Shown here: positions 8,291-62,300 of the stretch, one piece after another
Layout: each line of letters opens with the position of its first letter
How positions within the stretch are numbered: the stretch's first letter is position 1
Assembly (NCBI GenBank): GCA_035501255.1
Contig: DATJWM010000086.1
Coordinates: forward strand, 8,203 to 72,202
Source: Mycobacteriales bacterium
Lineage (GTDB): Bacteria > Actinomycetota > Actinomycetes > JAFAQI01
DNA length: 64,000 nucleotides
Direction: 5' to 3'
The notes under the pieces: model-generated
What the model saw: the letters and a program-made list of their open reading frames with translations, nothing else
The model's database searches: none
Told to the model about the DNA's origin: nothing
Position numbers and translations under genes: made by a program

Positions 8291-8460
8291 TCGCCCTCCT
8301 TGGAGGCAGTGCGGAGCCTTTCTCCGCCGGGGCGACCCTAGAGGCCCAATCGGGCTATCAAGCCGCTAGATCCTGAACAGCAGACGAACGATCACCACAA
8401 TCGCGCGATAGGCCTGCTATCGCGCGAGGCGGATGGGCTCCGTGTGACCACGGAGCGTCA

Positions 8461-44533: not shown

Positions 44534-44534
44534 C

Positions 44535-45002: not shown

Positions 45003-45014
45003 TGGCTCCGCCTT

Positions 45015-47038: not shown

Positions 47039-47043
47039 GCGTT

Positions 47044-47265
47044 CTACTCCCTCGGGTCAATGCTGGAGAGCGACAGCGCACCCGTCGGGCACGACTCGAC
47101 GGCCGCACGGATGGTGTCGAGCGAGTCGTTGGGGGGCGGGAGCACGATCGCCCGCGCGTCGTCGTCCTGGTCGAACGTTGCCGGCGCCCCCAACGTGCAC
47201 ACGCCGCTACCGATGCACCGGTCTCGGTCGACCACGACCGTCCAGCCCGCGGAGGCGTCAGGCAT
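47044..47265 (-). CDS. Ferredoxin (3Fe-4S/4Fe-4S, P450 redox partner type)
   Basis: Start at internal ATG 47263-47265. 'VVVDRDRCIGSGVCTLGAPATFDQDDD..AVESCPTGALSL'. Confidence 0.75.
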   Translation of the reverse strand: MPDASAGWTVVVDRDRCIGSGVCTLGAPATFDQDDDARAIVLPPPNDSLDTIRAAVESCPTGALSLSSIDPRE

Positions 47266-48472
47266 GGGCAGGCACCGGTGGCTCGGCGGGAGTAAACCGG
47301 TAGAGCGATTCGGCGTTGCCCCGCAACAACTTGTACTGAACCTCGGGCTCGAGATGGGCGATGAGTCCCTTCGCGGTGTCGATACAGTGCGGCCAGGTCG
47401 AGTCCGAGTGCGGATAGTCGGTCTCGCACATGACGTTGTCGACGCCGATCTCATCCAGGCTCGCGATGCCGTGGTGGTCCTCGATGAAGCAGCCGTACAC
47501 GTGGTCGTGGAACAGCGCGCGGATGTCGAGGGTGTCCAGGTCGACGTCCGTGCTCGCGTGGTTCATGAACTTCTGACCCTTGGCCACCCAGTAGCGCTGC
47601 TTGTCGAGCACCTGCTCGGCGCGCTCGAGGAAGTACGGCATCCAGCCGATCTCGCCCTCCGACAAGGCGATCTTTAGCCCGGGAAACCGGGTGAACATCC
47701 CGCTGAACAACCAGGACAGCATCGCGCCCGACGTGCGAATCGCTCCCCACGCGAGGTTGGCCATGAACGGCGAGTCGGGCGCGATCTGGGGGACCTGGGA
47801 GGAGGAGCCGACGTGCATCGACGCGACCATTCCGATCTCGGACGCCGCCGCCATCACGGGATCCCAGTAGCGGCTGGGGTCGTGGATGGTCGGCAGGCCG
47901 AGTGGCGCGGGATTCTCCGAGAACGCAAAGGCGGTTGCGCCTTTGGCCGCACAGCGCTGCATCTCCGTCGCCGCGAGGCTGGGATCCCACATCGGGATGA
48001 GAATGAGCGGGATGTAGCGCCCGGGAGCGCTTGCGCACCACTCGTCGATGATGAAGTCGTTGTACGCCTGCAGGCAGACGAACCCGAATTCACGGTCGCT
48101 CGCATCCATGAACAACTGGCCGCAGAACCGGGTGACCGTCGGGAAGCACAACGAGGCGAGGATCCCCGCGCGGTCCATGTCGGCAAGACGCGCTGTTGGG
48201 TCGTAACACCCCGGCCGCATCTCCTGATAGGTCACCGGCTCCGGACTGAACTCCTCCTTGGACTTGCCGGCCACCGCCGACAACCCGGAGCTGGGGAACT
48301 TCTTCCCGTCGTAGGTCCAGTACTCGCTCTCCCCGTCCTGCACCAGGCGAGGCGCGCGATCACGGTCCTTGGCGGCCACGCGATCGACCCACAGGTGAGC
48401 GGGCTCCAGGATGTGGTCGTCCACGGAGATCAGCCAGTCGAGGTTCGGTTGCGTGGTCATCGTTGACTCCAT
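47258..48472 (-). CDS. Amidohydrolase-2 family (ACMSD-like metal-dependent hydrolase/decarboxylase)
   Basis: Start ATG 48470-48472 ('MESTMTTQPNLDWLISVDDHILEP'). 'SLCFPT', 'GIDNVMCETDYPHSDSTWP'. The upstream extension to 48757 is unsupported. Confidence 0.75.
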   Translation of the reverse strand: MESTMTTQPNLDWLISVDDHILEPAHLWVDRVAAKDRDRAPRLVQDGESEYWTYDGKKFPSSGLSAVAGKSKEEFSPEPVTYQEMRPGCYDPTARLADMDRAGILASLCFPTVTRFCGQLFMDASDREFGFVCLQAYNDFIIDEWCASAPGRYIPLILIPMWDPSLAATEMQRCAAKGATAFAFSENPAPLGLPTIHDPSRYWDPVMAAASEIGMVASMHVGSSSQVPQIAPDSPFMANLAWGAIRTSGAMLSWLFSGMFTRFPGLKIALSEGEIGWMPYFLERAEQVLDKQRYWVAKGQKFMNHASTDVDLDTLDIRALFHDHVYGCFIEDHHGIASLDEIGVDNVMCETDYPHSDSTWPHCIDTAKGLIAHLEPEVQYKLLRGNAESLYRFTPAEPPVPAHA

Positions 48473-48500
48473 CCATTCCAATTCGCCGTCAGTCTGGACC

Positions 48501-49982
48501 TCATGGGCGCAACTCGCCGATCGCGAGGTGCTTGAGCTCCTGGAAGGCACGGATGCCGTCAACACCGCGCTCCCTGCCCAAGCCGCTCTGCTTGTATCCA
48601 CCGCCGGGGGCGTAGGCGCTGAACAAGCCAATGTTGACGTTGACCGCGCCGCTCCGAAGGCGCCGCGCGACCGCGGACGCCGATGCGACGTCGGTCCCGT
48701 AGACCTGCGCCGAGAGCCCATAAATGCTGTCGTTGGCCATTTCCACTGCATGATCAAGGTCGCGATACCCGATCACCGACAGCACGGGGCCGAAGATCTC
48801 CTCGCGCGCGGCCGGGTTGCTGTTGTCGGGAACGTCGAGAACCGTCGGCTCGAAGTAGTACCCGTGAGCGAGATGCGCCGGCCGCTTCCCGCCGAACGCG
48901 ACCGTGCCGCCGTACTCGGTGGCCAGTTCCACGTAGTGCTCGCACCGTGCCCGAGCGCTGGCGTTGATGACCGGTCCGATCAAGGTCGTCGGCTCGGTCG
49001 GGGGCCCCACCGCGAGCGCGCCGTACATCCCCGCCACCTTCGCGAGCACCTCGTCCTTGCTCTCCTGCGGCACGAACATGCGGGTCGCCGCGACGCAGGC
49101 CTGGCCTGACGTCATGGCCACCACCGCCGCGGCGCCCGTCGGCGCCCTGTCGACCGCATCCGGCAAGTAGATCTGCGCCGACTTGCCGCCGAGCTCGAGT
49201 GCGACCCGCTTCACGGTGTGAGCACCCTGGGCGAGGATCTGCTTGCCCACCGCGGTCGAACCGGTGAAGGACACCATGTCGACGCGCGGATCCTGCGTGA
49301 GCCGCTCGGCCACGGCGGAACCAGCCTCCGCCACCACGCTGAGCACGCCAGGAGGGATGCCCGCAGCATCCGCAGCGGACCCGAGCGCAAGCGAGGAGAT
49401 CGGGGTCAGGGGGCTGGGACGCAGGACCACCGAGTTGCCGGCCAACAACGCCGGAACGATCTTCTGAAAGGCCATGATGATCGCGGCGTTGTACGGCGTG
49501 ATGGCGGCGACTACCCCCGCCGGTTCCCAGCGCCGGACGCTCAGGGCGAGGCGACCGTCGGTCAGCTCATCAAGTGGCACCTGGTTGACCTGCTCGTCGG
49601 ACATCGACCGGTAGATGTCGATCAGGCCACGGGCGAGGGAGAGACCGCCACGCAACTGAGTCGTTTCGGCAAACCGGGTCGGTTGCCCGGCCTCGGCCAC
49701 CATGGTCGCGACGAGCGAGTCACCGAGCGACTCGACGTAATCGCAGAGCGCGCTGACCGCAGCCGCCCGCTCTCGCCGGTCCCGATCGGCCCACACGCCG
49801 CTGTCGAAGGAGCGCCGCGCGCCCGCGATCGCCTCGTCGGCGTCCGCCTCCGACGCGCCCAGCACCTCGCACACGGGCTGCTCGTCGGCCGGGTTCTCGA
49901 CCTCGAACGGTACGCCGTCGCTCGACCATCGACCCGCCAGGTAAGAGGCGCGCTCACCGATCAGGGTCGACATCCGGACCAT
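48501..49982 (-). CDS. Aldehyde dehydrogenase family protein
   Basis: 'VSFTGSTAVGKQI', 'ELGGKSAQI', 'MTSGQACVAATRMFV' (catalytic Cys), 'EEIFGPVLSV'. Confidence 0.9.
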   Translation of the reverse strand: MVRMSTLIGERASYLAGRWSSDGVPFEVENPADEQPVCEVLGASEADADEAIAGARRSFDSGVWADRDRRERAAAVSALCDYVESLGDSLVATMVAEAGQPTRFAETTQLRGGLSLARGLIDIYRSMSDEQVNQVPLDELTDGRLALSVRRWEPAGVVAAITPYNAAIIMAFQKIVPALLAGNSVVLRPSPLTPISSLALGSAADAAGIPPGVLSVVAEAGSAVAERLTQDPRVDMVSFTGSTAVGKQILAQGAHTVKRVALELGGKSAQIYLPDAVDRAPTGAAAVVAMTSGQACVAATRMFVPQESKDEVLAKVAGMYGALAVGPPTEPTTLIGPVINASARARCEHYVELATEYGGTVAFGGKRPAHLAHGYYFEPTVLDVPDNSNPAAREEIFGPVLSVIGYRDLDHAVEMANDSIYGLSAQVYGTDVASASAVARRLRSGAVNVNIGLFSAYAPGGGYKQSGLGRERGVDGIRAFQELKHLAIGELRP

Positions 49983-50138
49983 CCTCCGCTAGAACGGTGT
50001 TCTACCAAATCAGGACACCATAGTTCGTGTCAAGATGATCCGGTGTTGATCGGCGTCGCTCACGGGTGGGCGCGCGGGGGAACCAGGAGGCCGAACGGTG
50101 ATTGCGACAGCCATTGCCGCCACGCGGCACGACCCTCG

Positions 50139-51185
50139 ATGACCGTTCCGGTCCCCGACACGCTCGAGGAGGCACTCTCGCCGAGGTGGCTCTCGGCCGC
50201 ACTGCGCCCGCACCTCGGCGACATCGACGTCGTGGACGTCATTCCCGGGCCGGTTGTCAGCCGGATCACGACCAACGCCCGCTTCCGCATTGTGTGCTCG
50301 CGCCCGCTGCCGCCCACCTTCTCTGCGGACCTGTGCGTCAAGGGGTACTTCAACGACCTCGGCCGCGCGGCGCGCGTCGCCGGACCGCCCGAGGCGCTCT
50401 TCTACCGCGACCTCGCCGGCGAGGTCGGACTTCGGACGCTGCGCGCGGTGTACGCCGACGTCGACCGCGACTCCGGTCACGGCGTGATCGTCACCAGGGA
50501 CGTGATTGTGGACGGTACGTCGTTCCTTTCGGCGGCGAGCGAGTTCAGCGTCGACCAAGCGGCGACCAGCCTCGGCGAGCTAGCGCGCCTGCACGCCGCG
50601 ACCTGGAACCGCACCGACCTCGCCGAGCAACCGTGGCTGGCAAGTCGGTTCGACCGGATCGCCTGGCCGTCGAATGACGAACAGATTCGGCGGCAGTTCG
50701 CCGGACCCAACGCAGCAAACATGCCGGCCGCGGCGCGTGACGCGGATCGACTGCTCGCGGCATACCGCATCGTCGAGCAGCTGGCCTCGACCGCCGACCC
50801 GTGGTGCGTCATTCACGGCGATCCTCATCCGGGGAACCTGATCATCGATCGCGCCGGATGCCCGGGGTTCATCGACTGGCAGTTGGTCCAGTGCGGCCCG
50901 TGGTTCATCGACGTCGGGTATCACCTCGCGGCCGCGCTCACCACCGAGCAGCGCAGGACAGCGGGACACTCGCTGGTTCTGCACTACCTCGACGAGCTAT
51001 CCGGACACGGCATCATTCCCCCGGGCGAGCGCGATGCGTGGCAGGCCATCCGCGCTGGCATGGTCCACGGCTTGTTTCTCTGGGCTATCACCCGTTACGT
51101 CGATCCGCCGACGATCGCGATCATGTTGGAGCGTCTCGGCACCGCGGTGGTCGACCACGACGCGTTCGCATTGACGCCGGCCTGA
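50139..51185 (+). CDS. Phosphotransferase (APH/choline-kinase-like) family protein
   Basis: Start ATG 50139 ('MTVPVPDTLEEAL'). Brenner motif 'CVIHGDPHPGNLIID', 'FIDWQLV'. The upstream part of ORF 49218-51185 is antisense to the ALDH gene. Confidence 0.65.
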   Translation: MTVPVPDTLEEALSPRWLSAALRPHLGDIDVVDVIPGPVVSRITTNARFRIVCSRPLPPTFSADLCVKGYFNDLGRAARVAGPPEALFYRDLAGEVGLRTLRAVYADVDRDSGHGVIVTRDVIVDGTSFLSAASEFSVDQAATSLGELARLHAATWNRTDLAEQPWLASRFDRIAWPSNDEQIRRQFAGPNAANMPAAARDADRLLAAYRIVEQLASTADPWCVIHGDPHPGNLIIDRAGCPGFIDWQLVQCGPWFIDVGYHLAAALTTEQRRTAGHSLVLHYLDELSGHGIIPPGERDAWQAIRAGMVHGLFLWAITRYVDPPTIAIMLERLGTAVVDHDAFALTPA

Positions 51186-51198
51186 GTACATTCTTGGT

Positions 51199-51978
51199 GT
51201 GTCGCGTCGCGAACTCGAAGCGGCCATGGGGCTCGTGATCACCAGCACGGACGCCGCGGAGCGGTTCCGTGCCGATCCGGTGCGCTTTGCCGGCGACCTC
51301 GAGATGACCGACGTCGAACGTCGTTGGCTGGTCGAGATGGTCACCGACCTGACCGGGCTCACTCCGAGCTTCGTGGAGAAGCGGCGCCGCCAGCTGTCAA
51401 ACGCGGCGAACCTCACCCTTCGGTTCCTCGGAAGCCGCGGTGACCGCTGGCTGGACAGGTACATCGAGGCCAACCCGCCGGTGCCTGTCGTTGCCGATGA
51501 CCCGGCGCGGTGGATCAGTTGGCTCGTGGCCGAGATCGACGCCCACTCTGCCGACATTGATGGCGTCGCGCTGATCCGCTCGATGGCACAGCTGGATCAC
51601 ATGCGCCACCGCGCGTTTCGGACACCAGGACCGTTGACGCACCACGACGTCGGGGGACCGCCGTCCGCCTCGACGCCGCTTCGGCTCGCCGCCCCCACCG
51701 ACCTCGGCCGATTCGACTACGACGTACGCAAGCTCCGGGACATCCCACCCGAAACCGCCGCGCAGGTCCCCCCGGACCCGTGCTACTTGCTCGTCTACCG
51801 CCAGCCCGGTGGGCGAGTGATGTTCGAGCGAATCGAGAACGAGGCAGTCCTCGACGCGTTGATCGACCTTTCCGGACAGGCCCATCCGATTGACGATCTG
51901 GTTAGCGTGAGCCATCACCCCGACGGGCTGCGGGCCCGGCTGACCCGACTCTACGAAATGGGGGCGTTGACAACATGA
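51199..51978 (+). CDS. Hypothetical protein (possible DUF692 partner, MbnC/DUF2063-like; unverified)
   Basis: 259 aa with no recognised motifs. Sits 13 nt after the kinase and overlaps the DUF692 start (ATGA). Confidence 0.4.
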   Translation: MSRRELEAAMGLVITSTDAAERFRADPVRFAGDLEMTDVERRWLVEMVTDLTGLTPSFVEKRRRQLSNAANLTLRFLGSRGDRWLDRYIEANPPVPVVADDPARWISWLVAEIDAHSADIDGVALIRSMAQLDHMRHRAFRTPGPLTHHDVGGPPSASTPLRLAAPTDLGRFDYDVRKLRDIPPETAAQVPPDPCYLLVYRQPGGRVMFERIENEAVLDALIDLSGQAHPIDDLVSVSHHPDGLRARLTRLYEMGALTT

Positions 51979-52820
51979 CGGCGACGCCGCTGATTGGAGC
52001 GGGCTTCCGACCGGAACTTCCCGGGTTGTTCAACGACCCGGCGGCCGCCGGAATCGACGTGGCTGAACTGATCGCGGATCGGTACTTCGCCGCGGAGGGA
52101 TTCAACCGAGCGTGGGAGCTCGACCTGCTCCGAGAACACCAGGTGCCCACCGTTATCCACGGTCTGTCCGGCAACGCCGCCTCCGCGACCGGTCCGACCC
52201 GTGAGTACCTCGCCACCATCCGGACGCTCGCGGACGCGGTGGACTGCATCGCCTACAGCGACCACCTCGCGCTCACCGGCACGACCGAGCGCTCGCTTGG
52301 CCACCTCGCTCCCAACCGGTTCGACGACGACCTGCTCGCTCATGTCGTGACCAACATCGATCTGATGGCAGACATGACCGACCGGCGACCGAGGCTGGAA
52401 AACCTCGCGACGACGATCATGATGAGCGGATCGACGTACTCCGTTGAAGAGTTCTATCTGCGTCTGTTGGATGCCAGCGACAGGTGGGATTGCCTGGTCG
52501 ACGTCACGAACCTCTGGATCAACGCGCAGAACCGCGAGCTCGACCCGTACGCCTTTGTCGATGCGATCCCGCCGGACCGGCTCCGCTACGTCCACCTTGC
52601 CGGCGGTCACTTCATGCACGGTGAGTGGGTCGACTCACACTCGCACGCCGTGCATGACGGCGCGTTCGACATCCTCGAGCACCTTCTGACGCACGCCGTT
52701 CCCGACGTGATCATCGTCGAGCGCGATACCAACTGGGAAGGGGCCGAGGAGCAGGTGCGCGCCGACATCGCCCGCGCACGCTCACTCGTCGCCGCCTCTC
52801 CTCTCCTCGTGGCCGCCTGA
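51975..52820 (+). CDS. DUF692 (UPF0276; MbnB/TglH-like multinuclear non-heme iron enzyme, TIM-barrel)
   Basis: 281 aa: 'IGAGFRPEL', 'PTVIHGLSGN', 'SDHLALTG', 'LENLATTIMMSGSTYSVEEFY', 'LVDVTNLWINAQN', 'VHLAGGH', 'IIVERDTNW'. These are the conserved metal-ligand / TIM-barrel motifs of DUF692. Confidence 0.75.
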   Translation: MTATPLIGAGFRPELPGLFNDPAAAGIDVAELIADRYFAAEGFNRAWELDLLREHQVPTVIHGLSGNAASATGPTREYLATIRTLADAVDCIAYSDHLALTGTTERSLGHLAPNRFDDDLLAHVVTNIDLMADMTDRRPRLENLATTIMMSGSTYSVEEFYLRLLDASDRWDCLVDVTNLWINAQNRELDPYAFVDAIPPDRLRYVHLAGGHFMHGEWVDSHSHAVHDGAFDILEHLLTHAVPDVIIVERDTNWEGAEEQVRADIARARSLVAASPLLVAA

Positions 52821-52821
52821 C

Positions 52822-54066
52822 ATGAGTCAGATCGACGGTCAGGTCGAACCCGGCGTCGCACTCACCGACCCGTGCGAGACCGCTCGAGTGGTGGGTGAGC
52901 GAGCCGCGCCGTACGTCGCGATTCACGACCGCGAAGGAAGTTTCGTCGTGGAGGGGTACACCGCGGTCCGCGAGAGCGGGTACGGCGTCCTTGCGATTCC
53001 GGCCGATCTCGGTGGTGACGACGCCGACCTCGGGGAGGTGTGTCGGGCGCAGCAGGTTCTTGCCGGCTACTGCGCGAGCACGGCACTTGCCATCGCCATG
53101 CACCACCACACCGTGCTGTCGCTGGCCGTTCGTTGGCGTGCAGGGGACGACGCTGTGGGGACCTTCCTTCAGCGGGTTGCCAGCGAGAACCTGATCCTGT
53201 GCTCGAGCGGCACCGTCGACCCCTCGAAACCCGGCCTGCGCGCCACTCGGGTTGCGGGCGGCTTCCGAGTCTCCGGTCGCCGGCCCTACGCCAGCGGTGT
53301 GCCCGGTGCCGACTTCTTGCTTGCGCTCGCCGGCGACACCAACGGCGAGTGGATCATCAACGTAGTCATCGATCCCGCCGCTGATGGAGTCGTCATCCAC
53401 GACGACTGGAACGGCATGGGGATGCGCGGATCCGGGTCAAATTCGGTCACGCTCAGCGACGTCTTCGTCGCCGACGCGGACACGTACATGCAACGCCCCT
53501 GGCCGCGGCGCGGGCGTCGGCCGCGAGCGGGGGCCGACGGCGCCCAAACGCCTGCACCGCCCCAGGGCACGGTGTCTCCGGCACTGCGACGGCTCCCGTT
53601 GCGGATCCATGGCCTGATGGTGGCGCTTCCGGTGATCACCGCGGTGTACGTCGGTGCAGGCACTGCGATGTACGAACGGGCGGTAGCCCTCCTGAGCGAA
53701 GGTCGACGCGCACACGAAGAGGTCACCTACCGCCTGGTCGGCGAGATGGCCTCCCACCAGCACACGGCTGCGACGGCGCTCGAATCGATGGTCAGTGAGG
53801 TCCACGACGACGCGCTCGGATCCGAAGACCTCTACGTGCGGGTCATGCTGGCCAAACGTCAGGCCGTGCTGGCGTCGATCTCGACGGTGGAGCTTGGGAT
53901 GGAAGCGCTCGGAGCCATGTCCTATGACCGCGACCAACCTTTCGAGCAGGCGCTGCGTGATCTTCGGGCCGGCATCACCCACCCGCTCCCACCTGAACAC
54001 ACCCTCCGCGGAGTCGGTCGCTCGATCATGGTCCGTGCCGACTGGGCTCGCGGAGCGACCGACTGA
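52822..54066 (+). CDS. Acyl-CoA dehydrogenase family (ACAD-like flavoenzyme)
   Basis: 414 aa: 'AIPADLGGDDADL', 'HDDWNGMGMRGSGSNSVTLSDVFV'. Contains a Pro/Arg-rich insertion 'RPWPRRGRRPRAGADG'. Confidence 0.6.
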   Translation: MSQIDGQVEPGVALTDPCETARVVGERAAPYVAIHDREGSFVVEGYTAVRESGYGVLAIPADLGGDDADLGEVCRAQQVLAGYCASTALAIAMHHHTVLSLAVRWRAGDDAVGTFLQRVASENLILCSSGTVDPSKPGLRATRVAGGFRVSGRRPYASGVPGADFLLALAGDTNGEWIINVVIDPAADGVVIHDDWNGMGMRGSGSNSVTLSDVFVADADTYMQRPWPRRGRRPRAGADGAQTPAPPQGTVSPALRRLPLRIHGLMVALPVITAVYVGAGTAMYERAVALLSEGRRAHEEVTYRLVGEMASHQHTAATALESMVSEVHDDALGSEDLYVRVMLAKRQAVLASISTVELGMEALGAMSYDRDQPFEQALRDLRAGITHPLPPEHTLRGVGRSIMVRADWARGATD

Positions 54067-55178
54067 TGGGGAAGAAGTCGACGACCTCCGGCACCAAGGC
54101 CCGCAAGCACAAGAGGAACAAGAAGGTCGAAAGCCGCGGCAACGATCACCCCAACAGCACCGGCCGCCCGGAGAACGAACAGGTGTCGCCGGACTGGCAG
54201 CAGTGGGCGGCGCAGCGGCTCCTCAGCGGCGCACCTCTTGCCGAGGTGATCGCGGCCCTGGTCGCATCGGGGGTGTCCGAACACACGGCCGCGACGCTGT
54301 GCGCGCACACCTATGCCGATCCAATCTTCGACGCGGCGCGGTCGGTCTCCCAACAACTGCGAAAGATCAACTCCACGCTGGCGATTCGCGCCTCGCTCGC
54401 CGCGTTGAATCCCGCGCTGGCGGACGTCGAACGGCGCAGTCGGTTGAGCGCCCGCTCCTTCGTGGAGAAGTACTACGCCGCCAACCGACCGGTGGTTATC
54501 ACCGACGCCGCGAGCCGCTGGCCGGCGATCGAGCGCTGGACGCCCGACTACCTCGTCGAGCAGGTCGGCGGCGAGGAGGTGGAGGTGATGTCGGGCCGCG
54601 ACGCCGACCCCAACTACGAGGTCAACTCCGCCTCCCACAAACACGTCATGCCGTTCGACGAGTACGTGCGCAAGGTTGTCGACACGGGTGCCAGCAACGA
54701 CATCTATCTGGTTGCGAACAACCATCTACTGGACTCGGCTGCCGCCGACGGCCTGTGGTCCGACGTCACGTTGGATAAGCGCTATCTCAACCCGGCCCGC
54801 GCTCGCGGACACACGTTCCTGTGGTTCGGCCCAGCCGGCACCGTCACGCCGTTGCACCACGACACGATGAACGTCATGTTCCATCAGGTCCTCGGGCGAA
54901 AGCGGATCACGCTCATCTCGCCGCTGGACACGCGCTACCTCTACAACTCGCGGTCCGTGTACTCCGACGTTCGCCTCGAGGAACCCGACCTCGAGCGATT
55001 TCCGGAGTTCACCCGCGCGACCCGGACACAGGTCATCGTCGAGCCTGGAGAGGCGCTGTTCATCCCGGTCGGCTGGTGGCACCACGTTGAGGCTCTCGAT
55101 CTCAGCATCAGCGTGTCGAGCACCGCGTTCATTGCCGTCAACAGCTTCGACTGGTTCTTGCCCGACCCGGTCGGATGA
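54066..55178 (+). CDS. JmjC / cupin-8 family Fe(II)/2OG-type hydroxylase-like protein with Lys-rich N-terminal tail
   Basis: 370 aa: 'HTFLWFGPAGTVTPLHHDTMNVMFHQVLGRKRI', 'LFIPVGWWHHVEAL'. N-terminus 'MGKKSTTSGTKARKHKRNKKVE'. Confidence 0.65.
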   Translation: MGKKSTTSGTKARKHKRNKKVESRGNDHPNSTGRPENEQVSPDWQQWAAQRLLSGAPLAEVIAALVASGVSEHTAATLCAHTYADPIFDAARSVSQQLRKINSTLAIRASLAALNPALADVERRSRLSARSFVEKYYAANRPVVITDAASRWPAIERWTPDYLVEQVGGEEVEVMSGRDADPNYEVNSASHKHVMPFDEYVRKVVDTGASNDIYLVANNHLLDSAAADGLWSDVTLDKRYLNPARARGHTFLWFGPAGTVTPLHHDTMNVMFHQVLGRKRITLISPLDTRYLYNSRSVYSDVRLEEPDLERFPEFTRATRTQVIVEPGEALFIPVGWWHHVEALDLSISVSSTAFIAVNSFDWFLPDPVG

Positions 55179-56074
55179 CGGAGCCGGCACCGCCGAGGCG
55201 CCGCGGAGAGCCGCATCAAGGCCCGTTTCGGATTCTGGCGGCACCCGACCCGCGCGGCACGACGATCACGACCTGCGGCTTGGTCGCGACGTTGCCTCGC
55301 TCGGGCAGCTGGCTCCTCTCCGACGCTCTTGCATCGACCGGACTCGTGGGTCAACCGGCCGAATTCTTCCGGCCCGACTACCTCGCGGCGTACCGGCGCT
55401 CGTGGGGTCTTGCTGCGGATTGCTCGACGACCTCCTACGTCGAGGCGGCCATCGACCGCACGGCGTCGGACAGCGGCATCTTCACCGCGAAGTTGCACTG
55501 GTATCAGTTCGAGTGGTTGTGCGAGGAACTTGCGATCGAGCTCGGCGTCGAGTCCCCTCCAACACTCGACCTCATCGCTCCGTACTTTCCGCAACTGCGA
55601 GTCATTCGCCTGACTCGTCGCGACCGTGCCCGCCAGGCACTGTCGTACTACGTCGCGATTCACTCGCAGCGCTGGTTCGACCACGCCCCGCCCGCGGCCA
55701 GGCTGACCGACGATCCCGACTGGGCACCGGATCTCCAGCAGGTGCGGTTCCTCGACGATGCGCTGGCGAATCACGAATCCTGCTGGGAGCGGGTTCTCGC
55801 GAGTGCGTCAGCCCCGACCCTGACCGTCGCCTACGAGGACCTCGTCGCCGACCGGGAGCTGACCTTGACAACGGTGCTGCGCTTCCTCGGTGTTGAGGCC
55901 GATCCGCAACTGGTCAGTGCTCCGGCGGGTCTGAGTCGACAAGCCGGGAAATACACCGACATGTGGGTACGCCGCTACGAGGGGGTTCGTGACCTGCTGC
56001 AACCGCTCACGAGCGCGCACGTCTGGTCCGATCAGGTCGGCGGGTACGTGCCTCGGGACTCCGCCGACGGGTAG
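55175..56074 (+). CDS. Stf0-family sulfotransferase (PAPS-dependent carbohydrate sulfotransferase-like)
   Basis: 299 aa: 'TLPRSGSWLLSDALASTGLVGQPAEFF' (5'-PSB loop), 'TAKLHWYQFEWL', 'IRLTRRDRARQALSYYVAIHSQRW'. Start overlaps the JmjC stop. Confidence 0.6.
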   Translation: MTEPAPPRRRGEPHQGPFRILAAPDPRGTTITTCGLVATLPRSGSWLLSDALASTGLVGQPAEFFRPDYLAAYRRSWGLAADCSTTSYVEAAIDRTASDSGIFTAKLHWYQFEWLCEELAIELGVESPPTLDLIAPYFPQLRVIRLTRRDRARQALSYYVAIHSQRWFDHAPPAARLTDDPDWAPDLQQVRFLDDALANHESCWERVLASASAPTLTVAYEDLVADRELTLTTVLRFLGVEADPQLVSAPAGLSRQAGKYTDMWVRRYEGVRDLLQPLTSAHVWSDQVGGYVPRDSADG

Positions 56075-56214
56075 CGACCGTCACGCGCCAGCGAGGTGTG
56101 TCACACTCGCTGTCAACCCTGGGTGACATCGGGTTCGCCGAGCACTATCGTTCCCCACCGGAGCCCCAATCGTCGGGTGATCCAGGTCCACCGCCGCATT
56201 CCAGGGGTTGTGAC

Positions 56215-57108
56215 ATGTCAGAGGACGAGCTTGCCAGGCGCTACATCCAAGGGCGGATCGATCGACGGGCGTTGATTCGCGGGCTGGTTGGATCCGGCCT
56301 GACGATGGCGGCGGCCGCCACGTTCGCCGAGGCGCTCGCCACCCCGGCTGCGGCAGCAGCCACCGCCACGGTGGGGAAAGCCGGCTCGAAGAAGCCATCC
56401 AACCGACCGGTCATCTCCTCGCTCTCGCCGGACCATGGCACGACGCACGGCGGCACCAGGGTCACGATTCGCGGTCACCACCTCTCTGGCGCGACCGCGG
56501 TCCACTTCGGCGGCAAGAAGGCGAAGATCCACAAAGAGGTGTCATCCTCCGAACTTCAGGTGACCTCCCCCAAAGAGGGTTCGGGCACCGTGTTGGTGAC
56601 GGTGACGACCGGGCACGGGACGTCGGCCAAGACCGGCGCCTCGGCGTTCACTTACCACCACCCGGCGGCGCCCGTCGTCCACTCCGTGTCGCCGTCCTCG
56701 GGACCGGCAGCCGGCGGGACGACAGTGACAATCTCCGGTAGCAATCTGTCGAAGCCGAAGTCCGTGCACTTCGGATCCCACAAGGCAACGATCACAAGTT
56801 CCTCCGCCTCCAAGGTCGTCGTCACGTCTCCGGCGGGTACCGGACTGGTCGACGTGACCGTGACCACGACCGGTGGCACCTCACACAAGCACGCCTCGGC
56901 CTCCTTCACCTACACGTCGACGCCCACACCGACCCCCACACCGACCCCGACACCGACGCCGACTCCCGGATGTGGCTGCGGCGGGTGCGGCGGATGTGGC
57001 GGGTGCGGCTGCGGCGGCTGCGGCGGGTGCGGCTTCGGCTGCGGCGGCTGCGGCGGGTGCGGCGGATGCGGCTGCGGGTGCGGACCGAGCGGGAACGCGA
57101 AGAAGTAA
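56215..57108 (+). CDS. Tat-secreted protein with two IPT/TIG domains, (TP)10 linker and C-terminal poly(Cys-Gly-Gly) tail
   Basis: Start taken at ATG 56215 (the ORF opens at 56098). Tat signal 'DRRALIRGLVGSGLTMAAAATFAEALATPAA'. Two ~90-aa repeats 'PVISSLSPDHGTTHGGTRVTIRGHHLSGATAVHFGG..A' / 'PVVHSVSPSSGPAAGGTTVTISGSNLSKPKSVHFGS..A' (IPT/TIG). Then 'TPTPTPTPTPTPTPTPG' followed by 'CGCGGCGGCGGCGCGGCGGCGFGCGGCGGCGGCGCGCG' (14 Cys). Confidence 0.6.
   Translation: MSEDELARRYIQGRIDRRALIRGLVGSGLTMAAAATFAEALATPAAAAATATVGKAGSKKPSNRPVISSLSPDHGTTHGGTRVTIRGHHLSGATAVHFGGKKAKIHKEVSSSELQVTSPKEGSGTVLVTVTTGHGTSAKTGASAFTYHHPAAPVVHSVSPSSGPAAGGTTVTISGSNLSKPKSVHFGSHKATITSSSASKVVVTSPAGTGLVDVTVTTTGGTSHKHASASFTYTSTPTPTPTPTPTPTPTPGCGCGGCGGCGGCGCGGCGGCGFGCGGCGGCGGCGCGCGPSGNAKK
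56917..57084. repeat. Coding microsatellite: (ACNCCN)n followed by (TGCGGCGGC)n-like GC-rich tandem repeat
   Basis: 56917-56966 encodes (TP)n. 56968-57084 is an imperfect tandem repeat of 'ggctgcggcgggtgcggcgga'. It is open in several frames on both strands (spurious ORFs 56873-57151, 56906-57115, 56970-57266). Confidence 0.8.
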
Positions 57109-57154
57109 CCACCACCAGCGCGGGTCAGGTCGATCGGCCCTCAGGGAATAGCGA

Positions 57155-57913
57155 TTACCCGTGCGTCCAACGGATCCGGAACGTGTGCCTCCGATCCGCG
57201 ATCACACCCGGCCTGGATCGGACCGTGCCCGCGCGCCGCATGGTGACCGCGCGGGTGTGTGGGTAGGCGGTGATGGCCTGCGAACCCTGACCGGTCGAGG
57301 CCCGGGTGCGTGAGAAGCTCACGGGAGTGAACCGGGCAAGCGGGTCGTACCCGCACGTCTGGCAGCTCCTGGGCGAGGAGACGATCCACTCGGCCGACGC
57401 GGCCTTAGCGGTCCCCTTCCGGGTTGTCGCAAACGACCAACCGGCACTGTTCGTCAGGCGCAGCCGGTAGCGCGAACCGGTGCGCCGCACGGTCGCTGTC
57501 AGCCGGTCCCCCGGGACTACCGGGTACGTCGTCGCCGCGAGGAAGTGCACCGGCTTCGGCCACATCTGCCACCACACCCGATAGCGAGGCGTGCCGTCGA
57601 CACACGTCGTCTTCGAGCCGATCTGCTCGACGGTTCGGCTGCGGTAGCCATCGAGGCCGTCCCAGATCGCTACCGATGCATGCCCGGTCGAATCGGGACA
57701 CCGAACGGTGGGCTCCTTCCAGGTCCCGACCACAGCGGCGAACCGGTGCGGGGAGAGCACGACGTACCCGGACCAGTTCGGCGAGTGCACCGCACGGGGG
57801 GCCGCGGCGTGATTCGGCAGGCCGATGGCCGGCGGGACGAGGGCCAGGACGCCGGCTGCGGCTGTGAGCACCAACCGCCAGCCGATCCGGGCACCGATAC
57901 CGACCATCGTCAA
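57155..57913 (-). CDS. Peptidase A4 / G1 (glutamic peptidase, scytalidoglutamic-type) family secreted protein
   Basis: 252 aa. N-terminal TM/signal. G1 hallmark 'SPNWSGYVV', beta-sandwich, conserved 'AEWIVS'. Confidence 0.5.
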   Translation of the reverse strand: MTMVGIGARIGWRLVLTAAAGVLALVPPAIGLPNHAAAPRAVHSPNWSGYVVLSPHRFAAVVGTWKEPTVRCPDSTGHASVAIWDGLDGYRSRTVEQIGSKTTCVDGTPRYRVWWQMWPKPVHFLAATTYPVVPGDRLTATVRRTGSRYRLRLTNSAGWSFATTRKGTAKAASAEWIVSSPRSCQTCGYDPLARFTPVSFSRTRASTGQGSQAITAYPHTRAVTMRRAGTVRSRPGVIADRRHTFRIRWTHG

Positions 57914-59226
57914 CCCCCGACGAGCTCAGCGAGCGCGGTGGTGATCGCGACCGTTGGGCCGTCGGGTCGGCGCCACTCACCGAGCTCCTCGATCAAGCTC
58001 CGGCCGCGCGATCCGACCTCATGCAGAGCTGCGGGATCGGACAGCCAGGAACGCAAGGTATCCGCCAGGGCATGCCGGTCGGTGGGATCGTCGACCCGAA
58101 TGTAGTTCTGCCCCGGGACCAATCGCGCCCGGAACGGCACCTTGTCGGCAATCTCACCGGACAGCACGAGCGGCCGGCCGCGGCTCATTACCTCCTGCGG
58201 CACGCGACTGCGGTGCAGCGGCACATCGAAACGGCGCTCGAGCACGCACACCATCGAGCACGCGTCGAGGAATCCCGGAACCCGCCACGGGGCGATGAAC
58301 GGGAAGAGCACGGCCCGCTGCCCGATCCGATCAGTGCGGGCCACCTGGTTGAGATAGCTGCGATGGAGGCCGTCCGGGCCCCCGATCGCGCCGAGGAGGG
58401 TGATCTTCCGGGTCTCTCCCACCTGGTCGAGCGCACTAAGCAGATCGTAGGAACCTTTCGATTCGGCCACTTTGCCGTAGATACCGATCGTCGGGGCGCC
58501 CAGAAGGTCGCCGCTGCGAGCCAGGTTGTCGACCAGGACGCGTCGGGTCGACGGCGACAGTCCCATCGACCGGTACCTGTCCGCGCCCAGCGCCGCGAGC
58601 TCCTCAAAGTCCGTCATCGCGTCGGCCGACGCGAAGTACTCGGGGATCCGGCCACGCTCAACCATTCGCAGGATTGTCGGATCGGCCCCAAGCTTCTCCA
58701 GCAGTTTGGCGCTGCCCGGGCCGGTCAGGATCCGGTCTGCCTGCTTGGTCAACCAGCGGTACGCCGATCGGAGCTCCGGTTGGCGGGCGAGCCTGCCCAC
58801 GTCGCTCCCGGCGTGACGCACGATCAGCGGAATCCCGGCCGCCGTCGCCACTTGTGCGGCCACCAGGGCATAGGGCTCCCAATACCACCCGAGGACTGCG
58901 TCGTAGTCGTTGGTCTCGGTGAGCTGCGACCCAAGCCCGAACAGCTGCGACGCGAACGGTTTGGCCCAGGGGACGTAACTGCTGTCCTCGAGCGCGGTCG
59001 TGTGGTGAACCTTCACCCACCCTCCGGTCGGTGAGGCAGGAGGCTCGCTCAATCGCACCCGGTCACTGTCGGTCATCAGCGCGCGAACCGACGGTTCCGC
59101 TTGCTCGGCGTTGGTGACCACGTCGACACCGTGCCCGGCCTCGGCGATCAGTCGGGTGGTCAGGTAGGTCTGACTGGCGGTGCCCCCCTCGATCGGCGGG
59201 TACTTGCCGAACACCAGAAGCCGCAC
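57910..59226 (-). CDS. Glycosyltransferase family 4 (GT-B)
   Basis: 438 aa: 'RLLVFGKYPPIEGGTASQTY' N-terminal GT4 motif, C-terminal 'E..G.P' region 'RGRPLVLSGEIADKVP'. Confidence 0.65.
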   Translation of the reverse strand: MRLLVFGKYPPIEGGTASQTYLTTRLIAEAGHGVDVVTNAEQAEPSVRALMTDSDRVRLSEPPASPTGGWVKVHHTTALEDSSYVPWAKPFASQLFGLGSQLTETNDYDAVLGWYWEPYALVAAQVATAAGIPLIVRHAGSDVGRLARQPELRSAYRWLTKQADRILTGPGSAKLLEKLGADPTILRMVERGRIPEYFASADAMTDFEELAALGADRYRSMGLSPSTRRVLVDNLARSGDLLGAPTIGIYGKVAESKGSYDLLSALDQVGETRKITLLGAIGGPDGLHRSYLNQVARTDRIGQRAVLFPFIAPWRVPGFLDACSMVCVLERRFDVPLHRSRVPQEVMSRGRPLVLSGEIADKVPFRARLVPGQNYIRVDDPTDRHALADTLRSWLSDPAALHEVGSRGRSLIEELGEWRRPDGPTVAITTALAELVGG

Positions 59227-59350
59227 CCGCGAACGTTACCGCGATAAGACCGCCTCCCTGGACCGTTCGGGCGGCCCGCGGAGCCCGCCCCTTCACGCCG
59301 ACTTCGCAGTCCGGGAGACACCGTCCGAGCGCGCAGTGCAGGATGGTCCG

Positions 59351-62300
59351 ATGCTGCGCCGCCTCCTGCTCTCCCTCGCCGCTATCTCGGTCGTCGTCGT
59401 TGCCGTCGCCCTTCCGGTCGGCCGCGCCACCGCGAGCTCGGCGAGCTCCGACACCGCGGGGTCGACACTGGGCGACACGACGATCTCGGTGAACGACCTG
59501 CGCGACGGCTGGGACCAGGACGAACCCCAACTGTCGCCTTCGATCGTCGGCAGCTCGGACTTCGGTCAGCTGTTCAGCACGCAGGTGGACGGCCAGGTGT
59601 ATGCCGCGCCACTCGTCGTTGACCGCACCGACACCTCGCCCGGAATCCTGATCGTCGCGACCGAGAACAACGACGTCTACGGGTTGAACCCGGTCGACGG
59701 ATCGATCGAGTGGGGGCCGATCAATCTCGGGACGCCGTGGTCAGCGAGCGTTCTGGGGTGCGGCGACCTCACGCCGAACCTGGGCGTGACGTCGACACCG
59801 GTGTTCGACCCGTCAACGGACACGGTGTATGTCATGGCCAAGGACGCTCCCGACGGGGCGACGAGCACCGACCCCCGGTTCCAGTTGCACGCGCTCGACG
59901 CCCAGACCGGGGTGGAGCGCACGGGCTGGCCGGTGACGATCAGCGGGCACCCGGACAACGATCCAACCCGGACGTTCAACCCGGAGACCGCCGCACAACG
60001 CCCCGGCCTCCTGCTCCTCAACGGCGTGATCTACGCCGGCTTCGCGAGCCACTGCGACTACGGGCCCTACGTCGGGTACGTCGTCGGCGTGAGCACCTCA
60101 ACCGCAACCAGGACCGCAATGTTCTCCACCGAGGCCGGATCGGACAATGGAGAAGGCGGGATCTGGCAGGGCGGTGGAGGTCTGGTCTCCGATGGGGACA
60201 ACCAGATCATCGTCTCCACCGGAAACGGCAACACCGCCCCGGTCGCGCCGAGCGACGCACCGCCCGCCGACCTCAGCGAGGCGGTCGTGCGACTTCAGGT
60301 GCAATCCGACGGCACTCTGAAGCCGACCGACTGGTTCAGCCCGGCGAACGGCGCATCGCTCAACCAGACCGACTCCGACCTCGGGTCCGGCGGTCCACTC
60401 GCGATTCCCGACGGCTACGGAACGTCGAGCTATCCGCACCTGTTGGTGCAAGCGGGCAAGGACGGGCGGGTCTTCCTGCTGAACCGCGACGAGCTCGGCG
60501 GGGAGGCCCAGGGGCCGGGCGGCACGGACGACGTCTTGAACATGATCCAGCTGGGGCACGGACAGTGGGGTCACCCGGCGTTTTGGGGAGGGACGCCGGA
60601 CACCGACTCGGCGGGTGGCTACGTCTACATCGACCCATCCGAGAGCAGCCTGCAGGCCCTCAAGCTCACCGCGAACGGCTCGGGAACACCGCAGCTCGTG
60701 GCGACGGCCACCAGCGCCAATATCTTCCACTACACCTCCGGCTCACCGATCGTCACCTCGGACGGAACGACCGCAGGCAGTGCGCTCGTCTGGGTCGTGA
60801 GCGTTCATGACTCGAGCGGTGCGCAACCGATGCTCTACGCCTACAACGCCGAGCCCGACAACGGCGTCCTCGACAAGGTTTACAGCGCACCGCTCGATCC
60901 GCCAGGGGTCGCGAACACCGACGCACGGGGGGTGAAGTTCACCACCGTGGCCACCGACAACGGACGGGTCTTCGTCGGCACCCGCGATGGCTACGTGTTC
61001 GGGTTCGGCCATCCGTCGGGTTCGCCGGTGTATGCACCGCACACCGACTTCGGACCCGTGCCCGTCGGGACGAGCTCGTCCACGGTTGCGGTGACCCTGA
61101 CGGCCTCCCGGCCAGTCGAGGTGACCGGTGTCTCGACGAATGCGCCGTTCCACCTCGTCGACACGACGCCGGCGCTTCCCGTGACCCTCGACACAAACGA
61201 CACGATGACGGTCGACCTCACGATGACACCGACCGTCCCGGGCGACCAATCCGGGACGCTCACCGTGGACACCGCCGAAGCAGGAGGGGCGATCACCGGC
61301 ACGGTCGACTTCGGTCTGTCCGGTTACGGCACCAGCCCGGGTCTGGTGGCGAACCCATCGTTCGTCGACTTCGGGACCGTACCGATTCCCGGTTACGCCT
61401 CCGAGGGGGTGAACCTCGTCAACACATCGGGGGAGGACGAGACGATCTCGAGCGTGACCCCGCTGAGCGCGCCGTTCTCCTCCACCGACCTGCAGTCATT
61501 GGTGGGCCAGGTGCTGCCGGCGGGCGCATCGATCGCCGTGCCGTTGGTGTACTCGCCGACAATCGCGTCGACCAACGACGCGGCCACGCTCACGATCAGT
61601 GTCACCAGTCAAGACAACCCCGACCCTGTGCCCGTGTCGATCCCATTGTCGGGCGCGGCGATCGTCGGCGCGCCGAAGCTGGTGCGCAAGCCACGCACCC
61701 TCGACTTCGGGCCGGTCGCCCAAGGTGCGTCCCGCACGTTGACGTTCCAGATCTACAACGCGGGCAACGTCTTGCTGAAGATCGACAAGGCCAAGGCGCC
61801 GTTCGGTCAGTTCTACGCTGCACTGCCAGTCGATGAAGGGGCGACGATCCAGCCCGACCAGGCCATCGTTCAATCGGTGACCTTCGCGCCAACGAAGAAG
61901 GGCACGTCGACCGCGACGTACGAGGTCACCGGCAATGACTCCTCGGGAGCGCAGTACGAACAACTGGTCGGCCTCGACGACCAACTCACCGATCGCTACA
62001 ACCGCGATCAAGCGCTGCAGAGCCAACTCGGGAAGCCCCACGGCCCGACCACCAAGGTGGGCGGAGGATACGAACGGCTCTTCGCGCACGGCGAGATGTT
62101 CTGGTCAACCAAGGGTGGAATTCGTGCGTTGACGCGGCCCATTCTCACCAAGTACCTCGCGTTGGGTGGTCCGAGCGCCGCGATCGGCTACCCGTCGTCC
62201 AACGTCGTCGCGCTGTCGCCCAAGGGCCATCGGGTGCGGTTCGTCAGCGGCTGGTCGATCTACTCATCGAAGCGTTCGGGCGCCTGGTCGGTGCACGGGC

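Follow-up and report, generated by a model that had tools for sequence, protein, structure and literature searches.

A conserved gene cluster for putative oxidative maturation of an exported Cys-tail protein by a DUF692 enzyme in uncultured Actinomycetota

Introduction

Multinuclear non-haem iron oxidases (MNIOs, DUF692) are among the fastest-growing sources of new peptide chemistry, and their known Cys-modified products (methanobactins, bufferins, oxazolins and HvfA) are copper ligands with ecological and virulence roles. A stretch of 64,000 nucleotides, hereafter the window, from the metagenome-assembled genome (MAG) of a Mycobacteriales bacterium from soil raises the question of whether an enzyme of this type could act on a protein that ends in a long Cys repeat. 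At positions 50139 to 57108 an MNIO gene lies in a co-directional array, and the last gene of this array encodes a putatively exported protein with 14 Cys in its C-terminal tail. An original prediction from the sequence alone had proposed a new Cys-modification system with the tail protein as substrate. The comparative analysis described here favours, if by no means overwhelmingly, a cluster that resembles those for peptides of ribosomal origin that undergo post-translational modification (RiPPs): a protein-maturation system of uncultured soil and peat Actinomycetota, in which the Cys tail would be oxidised by the MNIO and would serve, after export, as a metal ligand.

Results

The gene array and its conservation in related genomes

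Seven co-oriented open reading frames (ORFs) were found at or near the positions first given for them, with a GC content at third codon positions (GC3) of 0.78 to 0.87, which is of the coding type, in a region of 66-70% GC within a genome of 67% GC. From the partner gene to the sulfotransferase gene the start and stop codons overlap or abut exactly as claimed: two pairs of genes share 4 nt (51975/51978 and 55175/55178), one pair shares 1 nt (54066), and a single nucleotide separates the pair at 52820/52822. The ORFs themselves thus stand, but two of the starts are likely to be shifted: the partner probably begins at ATG 51226, because every homologue starts with MG[VA]V[LI]TS, and the tail protein probably begins at ATG 56215 rather than at GTG 56098, because its homologues begin there, which leaves a gap of 140 nt after the sulfotransferase gene. 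The part of the array that belongs to the conserved system spans 51226-57108, and the same cluster is carried by independent metagenome assemblies of the source organism (L001 and L002). Its features are as follows.

51226-51978, + strand: MNIO partner protein; alternative GTG start at 51199; N-terminal helical domain and possible C-terminal domain resembling a RiPP recognition element (RRE)
51975-52820, + strand: MNIO (DUF692); PF05114 MbnB_TglH_ChrH, E 7e-49
52822-54066, + strand: flavoenzyme of the acyl-CoA dehydrogenase (ACAD) fold; weak matches to Acyl-CoA_dh N, M and C, E 1e-6 to 5e-4
54066-55178, + strand: JmjC/Cupin_8 2-oxoglutarate (2OG) oxygenase of the protein-hydroxylase type; Cupin_8, E 1e-44
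55175-56074, + strand: Stf0-like sulfotransferase using 3'-phosphoadenosine-5'-phosphosulfate (PAPS); PF09037, E 2e-26
56215-57108, + strand: putative substrate (tail) protein, 297 aa, with RR signal, two TIG domains, (TP)7, 14-Cys tail and short basic end
56215-56340, + strand: Tat-like signal peptide MSEDELARRYIQGRIDRRALIRGLVGSGLTMAAAATFAEALA (Tat, twin-arginine translocation)
56407-56913, + strand: two IPT/TIG domains, matched by Pfam TIG in two stretches; an optional module in the family
56918-56963, + strand: (Thr-Pro)7 linker; Tandem Repeats Finder period 6/12
56971-57084, + strand: Cys-Gly tail with 14 Cys, mostly at every third residue; putative modified core

A scan of one genome per species yielded 18 loci of the same MNIO subfamily (L003-L020), from Actinomycetes (Streptosporangiaceae and others) and from MAGs of Acidimicrobiia. 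In 14 of these, the partner and MNIO genes adjoin a gene for a tail protein with the same N-terminal ~45 residues, a Pro-rich spacer, a TP-type linker and Cys at every third residue (one such C-terminal run reads SCASCASCGSCGSCGGCGGCGGCG). The tail protein was also the neighbour in four short metagenome contigs (L034, L039, L050 and L051). A substrate gene conserved beside the genes of modifying enzymes, which is what makes a cluster RiPP-like, is therefore seen in the window, in these 14 loci and in the four contigs, and the proposal that syntenic DUF692 clusters of relatives contain a Cys-tail protein is borne out. Three of the 14 tail proteins are cut by contig ends and three carry frameshifts.

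The conserved set comprises six genes, encoding the tail protein, the partner, the MNIO, the ACAD-fold protein, the JmjC protein and the sulfotransferase. In most relatives they form two divergent operons, one with the tail protein, JmjC and in some cases sulfotransferase genes and the other with the partner, MNIO and ACAD genes, with intergenic gaps of a few to ~130 nt. In six loci (L007, L009, L014, L016, L017 and L019) the tail gene heads the divergent operon together with the JmjC gene, joined in four of them by the sulfotransferase gene, and the gap between tail-protein and partner genes is ~110-200 nt in several loci (L007, L009). The window holds the same genes in one co-directional array. 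As linkage has been kept through this rearrangement, it constitutes strong neighbourhood evidence, and a functional link between the tail protein and the cluster is highly probable on these genomic grounds.

An incidental linkage, in which the MNIO and its partner would mature an unrecognised small peptide, the JmjC protein, sulfotransferase and glycosyltransferase would make a sulfated envelope glycoconjugate and the tail protein would be a mere neighbour, appears quite improbable. It would draw on the facts that Stf0-type enzymes sulfate sugars and that the sulfotransferase of the window matches 1TEX, that the ACAD-fold protein is like amino-sugar N-oxygenases such as KijD3, that dTDP-sugar genes occur in some loci, and that partner and MNIO genes occur without an adjacent tail protein in four loci (L010-L012 and L020). 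These four are nested inside the clade in a neighbour-joining tree, which implies secondary loss. Against an incidental neighbour stands the adjacency of the tail protein in 14 of 18 loci from two classes, despite inversion and reshuffling of the other genes, in some cases across the short gaps given above. Moreover, no conserved small ORF that could encode an alternative precursor was found in the gaps around the window operon or upstream of the partner gene in the tail-less loci, so that the different small precursor which the original prediction had named as the finding that would speak against it has no counterpart conserved among the related loci.

Other genes are seen near the tail-less pairs. 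A LanC-like neighbour (E 3e-26) was found at L012:216-1688, and also in L043; at L020:5727-9223 a 915-aa fusion of radical-SAM and 2OG-oxygenase domains is accompanied by a PhyH-like protein. These neighbours hint at substrate switching within the MNIO clade. A gene for an IS630-type transposase (HTH_29/DDE_3) lies between the tail-protein and partner genes of three loci (L003:7831-8988, L004:7925-8971 and L008:7893-8987), where it separates the divergent operons. The frameshifts in the tail-protein genes lie in the HP/TP or leader region (L003:~6848-7753, L008:~6847-7800 and L018:~8154-9053); they are probably assembly errors in repeats, with pseudogenisation as the alternative.

The tail protein and its Cys repeat

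The protein encoded in the window ends in (TP)7-GCGCGGCGGCGGCGCGGCGGCGFGCGGCGGCGGCGCGCG-PSGNAKK, and its tail, PGCGCGGCGGCGGCGCGGCGGCGFGCGGCGGCGGCGCGCGPSGNAKK, contains 14 Cys. Apart from the two TIG domains (E 9e-32) it matched no Pfam model, and it matched none in NCBIfam (E <= 0.01). Its exact sequence was absent from the protein collection searched. A TGC/GGC-rich tandem repeat in a genome of 67% GC might in principle be a GC-rich simple repeat read in a chance frame, which would make the Cys tail a low-complexity artefact. This explanation is scarcely credible and effectively refuted: the frame is continuous with two Pfam-significant TIG domains, its GC3 is 0.83, the tail is identical in three independent assemblies, and relatives keep Cys at every third residue while the intervening residues and the codons change. 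The tail DNA is an imperfect repeat of period 9 with 78% matches and mixed TGT/TGC and GGC/GGG/GGA codons, and the tail is therefore not a recent slippage artefact. In a six-frame scan of the window and 25 loci for at least six Cys spaced by one or two residues, (C-x1-2)>=5-C, only the tail proteins were found, plus two alternative-frame readings of other repeats.

Twelve complete tails of the family contain 7-20 Cys. Of the 124 intervals between them, 108 measure exactly three residues, and 127 of 136 Cys are followed by G, A or S, a pattern that fits known MNIO sites and resembles the EGKCG repeats of oxazolins (PMC12452194). A linker of the TP, HPTP or PPT type is present in every member. 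The number of TIG domains is 2-4 in the window and in L007, L009, L014 and L016, and TIG is absent from about half of the homologous tail proteins, those of L003, L004, L005, L008, L017 and L019 having only (HPTP)n/(TP)n between signal and tail. Hence TIG does not define the substrate family: the full-size IPT/TIG substrate of the original prediction is an accurate description of the window protein with its two TIG domains, but not of the family, in which this module is dispensable. What remains constant is the signal, the Pro-rich linker and the Cys repeats.

The Thr-Pro linker has seven repeats in the window and twelve in the other two assemblies of the same organism (L001:14241-15164 and L002:5678-6601), a difference that reflects either length polymorphism or assembly collapse and affects the linker only. 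Beyond the Cys repeats, a basic extension with the motif S-P-L-[RS] is seen in L003, L005, L008, L009, L016 and the protein P0134 (e.g. AAWKSTASPLRKK and GLSPLSRSRSRGAGLRP); the window shows hardly any of it (GPSGNAKK), and L007 has none.

Known sorting signals are composed of a tripartite motif, a hydrophobic stretch and an Arg/Lys cluster. The order of Thr/Pro linker, small-residue stretch and basic cluster in the tail proteins resembles this layout, and TIG domains and Pro-rich linkers are typical of surface proteins, so that the Cys/Gly/Ser stretch with its basic end could be read as a C-terminal sorting or anchoring signal of the sortase/exosortase-like tripartite kind, with the cluster serving surface attachment. 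We consider this improbable, since genes for sortase, exosortase or rhombosortase are not recurrent in the loci and the stretch, which we estimate at ~0.4-1.2 on the Kyte-Doolittle scale, is not hydrophobic enough to form a membrane helix. In addition, L007 and the window have a minimal basic end or none, and sorting signals offer no parallel to the strict Cys period of three residues.

The MNIO and its probable target

The assignment of 51975-52820 to DUF692 was fully supported: the protein scores 166.8 bits against PF05114 (gathering cut-off 25) and spans positions 2-261 of the 263 in the profile. An AlphaFold2 (AF2) model, built with 17 sequences of the subfamily, had a pLDDT of 90 and a pTM of 0.90, and the top Foldseek matches were TglH (8HCI, TM 0.80), 3BWW, which is the DUF692 structure of Haemophilus somnus and also the best match of the window MNIO among PDB sequences, and MbnB (7DZ9, 7TCR and 7FC0). 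Residues H62, D96/H97, E142, D176, N179, H207, D220, H222 and E249 are invariant in the 17 subfamily members and align with motifs of 3BWW and TglH; we take them to be the positions that serve as iron ligands in the MbnB structures. The enzyme is thus an MNIO by sequence and predicted fold, for which iron- and O2-dependent peptide oxidation is predicted.

Scores against the curated NCBIfam families all stay below their equivalog cut-offs (BufB 132 against 310 bits, HvfB 114 against 360, ApyH 70 against 400, MbnB 35 against 325, ChrH 23 against 600), which places the enzyme outside every named MNIO subfamily. The subfamily itself is sharply bounded, with ~109 homologues at 45-71% identity, all from metagenomes or MAGs, and next matches at <=38%. 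The nearest curated families, BufB and HvfB, are both Cys-to-thiooxazole enzymes. By analogy with these families, and because of the Cys-Gly/Ala/Ser context of the tails, Cys oxidation is proposed. That the Cys residues are the MNIO target is probable on this analogy; that they are converted to thiooxazoles is a more tentative proposal.

Alternatively, the Cys tail may be left unmodified by the MNIO and serve as a plain thiolate (metallothionein-like) metal-binding or disulfide tail. The MNIO would then act on the linker, the basic end or the C-terminus, and the JmjC protein, sulfotransferase and glycosyltransferase would decorate the Pro-rich linker. The many non-Cys chemistries reported for MNIOs and the position of the window enzyme under all equivalog cut-offs are compatible with this, GT1 glycosyltransferase and dTDP-sugar genes and a second sulfotransferase in relatives point to linker decoration, and the conserved basic stretch with its SPLR-like motif after many tails could be a separate site. 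Nevertheless, this alternative is unlikely in our judgement. Only the signal, the Pro-rich linker and the Cys repeats are common to all members, and L007 and the window do without a long basic end; the nearest curated MNIOs modify Cys, and unrelated MNIO clusters also pair with Gly/Cys tails; finally, 7-20 exported free thiols would be prone to uncontrolled oxidation.

The unrelated clusters are those of distant MNIOs (27-33% identity) in L021, L023 and L024, which are directly preceded by proteins with Ser/Gly/Cys tails (GGCGGGGGCGGCGG, CGGGGGCGGGGGCGGCGGS). These proteins are encoded at L021:9193-9999 (unclassified MAG), L023:9321-9983 (Verrucomicrobia MAG) and L024:3937-4533 and 4599-5435 (Planctomycetota MAG); those of L021, L023 and L024:4599-5435 start with a CPxC zinc-ribbon-like motif followed by transmembrane segments. 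The upstream proteins of L021 and L023 had no match to TIGR04222 or another NCBIfam model and are therefore not called TIGR04222; the proteins of the three loci may correspond to the adjamnio-I group (PMC12452194). Together with the proposal made for TIGR04222 proteins, which is taken up below, the tails beside distant MNIOs indicate that, as far as sequences tell, the combination of an MNIO with a Gly/Ser/Cys tail is a recurring theme built on several chassis.

The partner protein

The partner gene lies directly upstream of the MNIO gene in the related loci, 13 of 18 of which gave a tblastn match to the partner. The assignment of 51199-51978 to DUF2063 (PF09836) could not be upheld, as neither the window partner nor any of 13 homologues matched this model at E <= 1; only weak matches to NGO1945_C (E 0.003, in 3 of 13 members) and HvfC (E 0.005) were obtained. 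A homologue search with the window partner returned the partner alone. A profile of the 13 partners had no match among PDB sequences even at E 10, and a single-sequence AF2 model (pLDDT 40) was unusable and was not used for a fold search; the order of its secondary structure, to which we attach no weight, was a helical N-domain and then beta-beta-alpha-beta-alpha. When the 13-homologue profile was aligned by hhalign with the partners encoded after the distant MNIOs, which are themselves uncharacterised, the N-terminal 128 columns matched with a probability of 95.8% and an E value of 7e-9. In the terms of Antoine et al. 2025 the protein would be a PME-type 2 partner, yet one encoded upstream of its MNIO.

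One of these partner-like proteins, at L021:10834-11445, matches NH_RiPP_Os17, a leader model of the NHLP clan, with E 2e-8 but under the cut-off, which suggests that the N-terminal helical domain of such partners resembles nitrile-hydratase-like leader peptides. In the tail protein no family-specific recognition element was identified, and the simplest candidate for what the partner recognises is the Cys repeat itself.

The N-terminal signal

The N-termini of 12 family members follow the consensus MSEEELAQGYLxGRISRRxLIRGLVAAGLSxVAASAFADAL, in which RR is invariant and is followed by x-L-[IL]-R-G-L, a hydrophobic region and A-x-A. This agrees with a Tat motif in having [ST]-R-R-x-L-[IL]-R, a moderately hydrophobic segment and an A-x-A end. 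An exhaustive phmmer search with the 43-residue signal returned 37 proteins, most with unrelated passengers, e.g. NHL repeats; one of the matches, P0134, is a true family member, with two TIG domains and, before a basic end, 14 Cys in C-x-x register. A profile search with the 12 leader sequences against an index of 5.8 billion proteins gave only two short fragments and was uninformative. The signal is thus a lineage-typical Tat-like export signal by its sequence, from which we infer Tat export. The twin-arginine signal of the original prediction holds in so far as RR is invariant, but the Pfam TAT_signal model gave no significant match and the signal is not specific to this family.

The possibility that the MSEEEL..RR N-region is a dedicated leader recognised by the partner was considered and rejected, the same signal being found on NHL-repeat and other unrelated passengers. 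A related acidic-N Tat-like signal, MSxEELVxAYxxGRISRRxFIRxLVxAGVS..AAVTYA, is present on many unrelated exported proteins (P0128-P0158), including NHL-repeat and Ig-like ones, and seems to be a lineage-typical signal variant with a conserved N-region.

The tailoring enzymes

The ACAD-fold, JmjC and sulfotransferase genes, which had been put forward as members of the system, co-vary with the tail protein even through the rearrangements of gene order. In 13 loci with a precursor gene, as well as in L020, the ACAD-fold gene comes after that of the MNIO. In the PDB the ACAD-fold protein matched 5Z8T/5GJ7 (E 3e-26), KijD3 (3M9V), nitrososynthases, MsuC and DszC by phmmer, and in NCBIfam HsaA, SfnB and DszC, all under cut-off. 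With its middle domain below the gathering score (20.5 against 33.3), the protein is not an acyl-CoA dehydrogenase proper, and in sequence it appears closest to the class D flavin monooxygenases that oxidise N or S atoms.

The JmjC protein scores 153.5 bits against Cupin_8 (cut-off 27.4), and its PDB matches are the JMJD5 arginyl hydroxylase (E 7e-37) followed by FIH, TYW5 and JMJD7. Its gene is present in all 11 related loci that have a tail protein and enough flanking sequence, and in none of the four loci without a tail protein. Sulfotransferase genes are found in 11 related loci, frequently two per locus. For the window protein, which matches 1TEX in the PDB, the Stf0 assignment holds at the level of the Pfam family only, since it reaches 80.9 of the 400 bits set for the Stf0 trehalose 2-sulfotransferase equivalog. 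No signal peptide was seen by eye on the cluster enzymes, which fits modification before export.

Neighbouring and accessory genes

Four further features border the conserved genes or lie among them.

50139-51185, + strand: APH/EcKL-type kinase; Pfam APH, E 2e-16; 40-nt gap to the partner gene
56123-56151, + strand: promoter-like site within the 140-nt gap before the tail-protein gene; weak evidence
57155-57913, - strand: secreted Peptidase_A4 (eqolisin-type); Pfam PF01828; N-terminus resembling a signal peptide
57910-59226, - strand: GT4 glycosyltransferase; Pfam Glyco_trans_4_4

The kinase, which had been listed among the plausible tailoring enzymes, was rejected in this role: tblastn detected no homologue in the 18 related genome loci or in the metagenome loci other than the contigs of the same organism, and its gene is probably not part of the conserved system. 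Across 49900-57400 no sigma-70-like match other than the promoter-like site was obtained, against a chance expectation of 0.4. Homologues of the Peptidase_A4 stand beside the cluster in L018 and in L017, where the gene comes right behind that for the JmjC protein, which makes this protease a recurrent accessory and a possible processing enzyme; GT4 homologues occur in L015 and L017. Further recurrent accessories are a GT1 glycosyltransferase, dTDP-sugar genes (RmlA/B/C-like), a second sulfotransferase and an LRV/HEAT protein. The latter, a repeat protein accompanied by an adjacent protein without a Pfam match, recurs in six related clusters (L003:1512-3651, L005:13049-15591 and L017:11946-14239 among them), though not in the window.

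Just downstream of the cluster the window encodes, at 59180-62458, a 1092-aa protein with choice-of-anchor D/ASH-type Ig-like repeats and LGFP matches, which was not found in most related loci. Upstream, at ~41975-49982 on the - strand, lie genes for a CoA-transferase, an AMP-ligase, an F420H2-dependent quinone reductase, a P450, an SDR protein, a ferredoxin, an amidohydrolase_2 and an aldehyde dehydrogenase, apparently an unrelated catabolic set.

Discussion

Proposed maturation and its weight

In the maturation scheme that we prefer, the substrate would be an exported protein that starts with a Tat-type signal. A spacer that varies between members (0-4 TIG domains and/or HP/TP repeats) and a Thr-Pro linker would follow, and then, in the C-terminal part, a (Cys-small-small)n core with 7-20 Cys, after which many members have a basic stretch. 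The protein would be made with its signal and held in the cytoplasm, where the partner would present the tail to the MNIO and the Cys residues would be oxidised, most likely to 5-thiooxazoles or to oxazolone/thioamides, as by BufB, HvfB and MbnB. The flavoenzyme, the JmjC protein and the sulfotransferase, joined in some relatives by glycosyltransferases, would then modify the heterocycle sulfur, the Thr, Pro or His residues of the linker, the tail or sugars. The matured protein would be exported via Tat, which would tolerate folded TIG domains and bulky modifications, and the secreted Peptidase_A4 may trim the product. Outside the cell the tail would act as a polyvalent ligand for soft metals such as copper; metal binding by the tail is a plausible suggestion, which we put forward with reserve.

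Several observations weigh against this scheme. The four loci with partner and MNIO genes but no adjacent tail protein have been described above. The chemistry may differ from that of the analogues, given an MNIO that scores under each curated cut-off, and other MNIOs are reported to modify Asp, Tyr, homocitrulline and C-termini. The RRE-like C-terminal domain of the partner is a possible assignment backed by weak matches. The N-terminal signal is common to unrelated exported proteins and therefore not a dedicated leader; moreover, of five leaders submitted to the Pfam TAT_signal model, one matched (E 0.12; 12.8 bits, cut-off 22.7). Genes of copper or metal homeostasis (DoxX, sigma/anti-sigma, Cop) are not recurrent in the neighbourhoods that were annotated. 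Finally, all members are known, as sequences, from MAGs and metagenomes.

A bolder possibility, which we regard as rather doubtful, is an undescribed class of exported, protein-sized ribosomal product in which 7-20 Cys in three-residue register become a continuous array of sulfur heterocycles (a 'poly-thiooxazole' wire) that is further oxidised, hydroxylated, sulfated or glycosylated and exported via Tat. If true, this would be an extracellular polyvalent metal-binding or redox-active polymer of acid-soil Actinomycetota and the first Tat-routed MNIO product, built on a modular chassis with interchangeable TIG or HP/TP spacers. If the scheme that we prefer is right, the family would extend the logic of MNIO systems to a Tat-like instead of a Sec signal and to modular proteins, with the densest and most regular Cys array so far and three extra tailoring enzymes unreported with MNIOs in the literature searched. 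As all members come from uncultured soil and peat bacteria, the product would otherwise be invisible. The family is an easily synthesised test case for substrate recognition by MNIO/partner pairs that lack a dedicated leader, and it bears on whether the widespread Gly/Ser/Cys tails, of the TIGR04222 type and others, are MNIO substrates.

Comparison with known systems

In methanobactin biosynthesis an MNIO and its partner oxidise Cys followed by a small residue into a copper ligand. MbnB is among the best structural matches of the window MNIO, whereas its sequence similarity is weak, the partner MbnC belongs to a different family from the window partner, and MbnA, with its two Cys and dedicated leader, is a short peptide. 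In the HvfA/HvfB/HvfC system of Haemophilus the substrate of the MNIO is an exported protein of full length, not a short peptide, and several of its Cys are modified (PMC11252979; bioRxiv 10.64898/2026.07.17.739211); the architecture of HvfA, however, differs from that of the window tail protein, and HvfC matches the window partner only at E 0.005. For a JmjC protein as a tailoring enzyme in an MNIO cluster, the precedent is BipG of the biphenomycin cluster, a hydroxylase that tailors side chains beside the MNIO BipE/F (PMC12707348). In contrast to what is proposed for the window, the biphenomycin MNIO acts on Tyr and not on Cys, and the product is a small macrocyclic antibiotic rather than an exported protein.

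Closest among the described systems are the bufferins and oxazolins, copper chelators with MNIO-made 5-thiooxazoles (PMC11626156; PMC12452194; PMC13097082). In these, as would be the case in the window, the Cys residues on which MNIO and partner act have small neighbours and belong to an exported peptide or protein, and oxazolin precursors reach up to 506 aa with up to 58 Cys in EGKCG repeats (PMC12452194). Bufferins have a Sec signal, a DUF2063 (PME-type 1) partner encoded after the MNIO and often DoxX, whereas the window has an RR signal and lacks DoxX, and its partner is of a non-DUF2063 kind and is encoded before the MNIO. The Cys repeat of the window has a C-x-x period instead of EGKCG, and the ACAD-fold, JmjC and sulfotransferase genes are added. 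The features by which bufferin-type clusters are recognised (DUF2282, a Buf_6/12Cys or EGKCG precursor, a Sec signal, DoxX) therefore do not describe the window cluster.

As to tails, Antoine et al. 2025 (PMC12452194) proposed from genomics that TIGR04222 membrane proteins with Ser/Gly-rich, Cys-interspersed C-termini are substrates of MNIOs with PME-type 2 partners. These proteins share with the window system a distribution mostly in Actinomycetota, an unstructured Ser/Gly/Cys tail predicted to lie outside the cytoplasm, the link to an MNIO and non-DUF2063 partners. They are, however, multi-pass membrane proteins without a signal peptide, whereas the window protein is predicted to be soluble, carries an RR signal and does not match TIGR04222. 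The adjamnio-I precursors have 8-21 Cys and the gene order precursor-MNIO-PME type 2 (PMC12452194). The systems of L021, L023 and L024 likewise have the order precursor-MNIO-partner; with the window they share a Gly/Cys-rich C-terminal tail beside an MNIO and a homologous partner, and they differ from it in being membrane-anchored, in having Gly-dominated tails without the C-x-x period and in having no tailoring genes. The concept is consequently less unprecedented than the original prediction had it, as protein-sized MNIO substrates and MNIO-linked Ser/Gly/Cys tails have already been described bioinformatically (PMC12452194).

That landscape paper makes no mention, in the text and supplements searched, of Tat, cupin/JmjC, sulfotransferase or acyl-CoA dehydrogenase. 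In the literature searched no MNIO was paired with a sulfotransferase or a twin-arginine/Tat signal, and the only pairing of an MNIO with a JmjC protein was that of biphenomycin. The window family was not found described: judged from its genes, it falls outside the bufferin clusters, TIGR04222, the DUF2063 partners and the named MNIO equivalogs, while it would work like them. What is newly described here is an MNIO clade and a family of putative substrates, together with a Tat-like signal and a fixed set of three extra tailoring enzymes; the combination fits, and does not overturn, the emerging paradigm.

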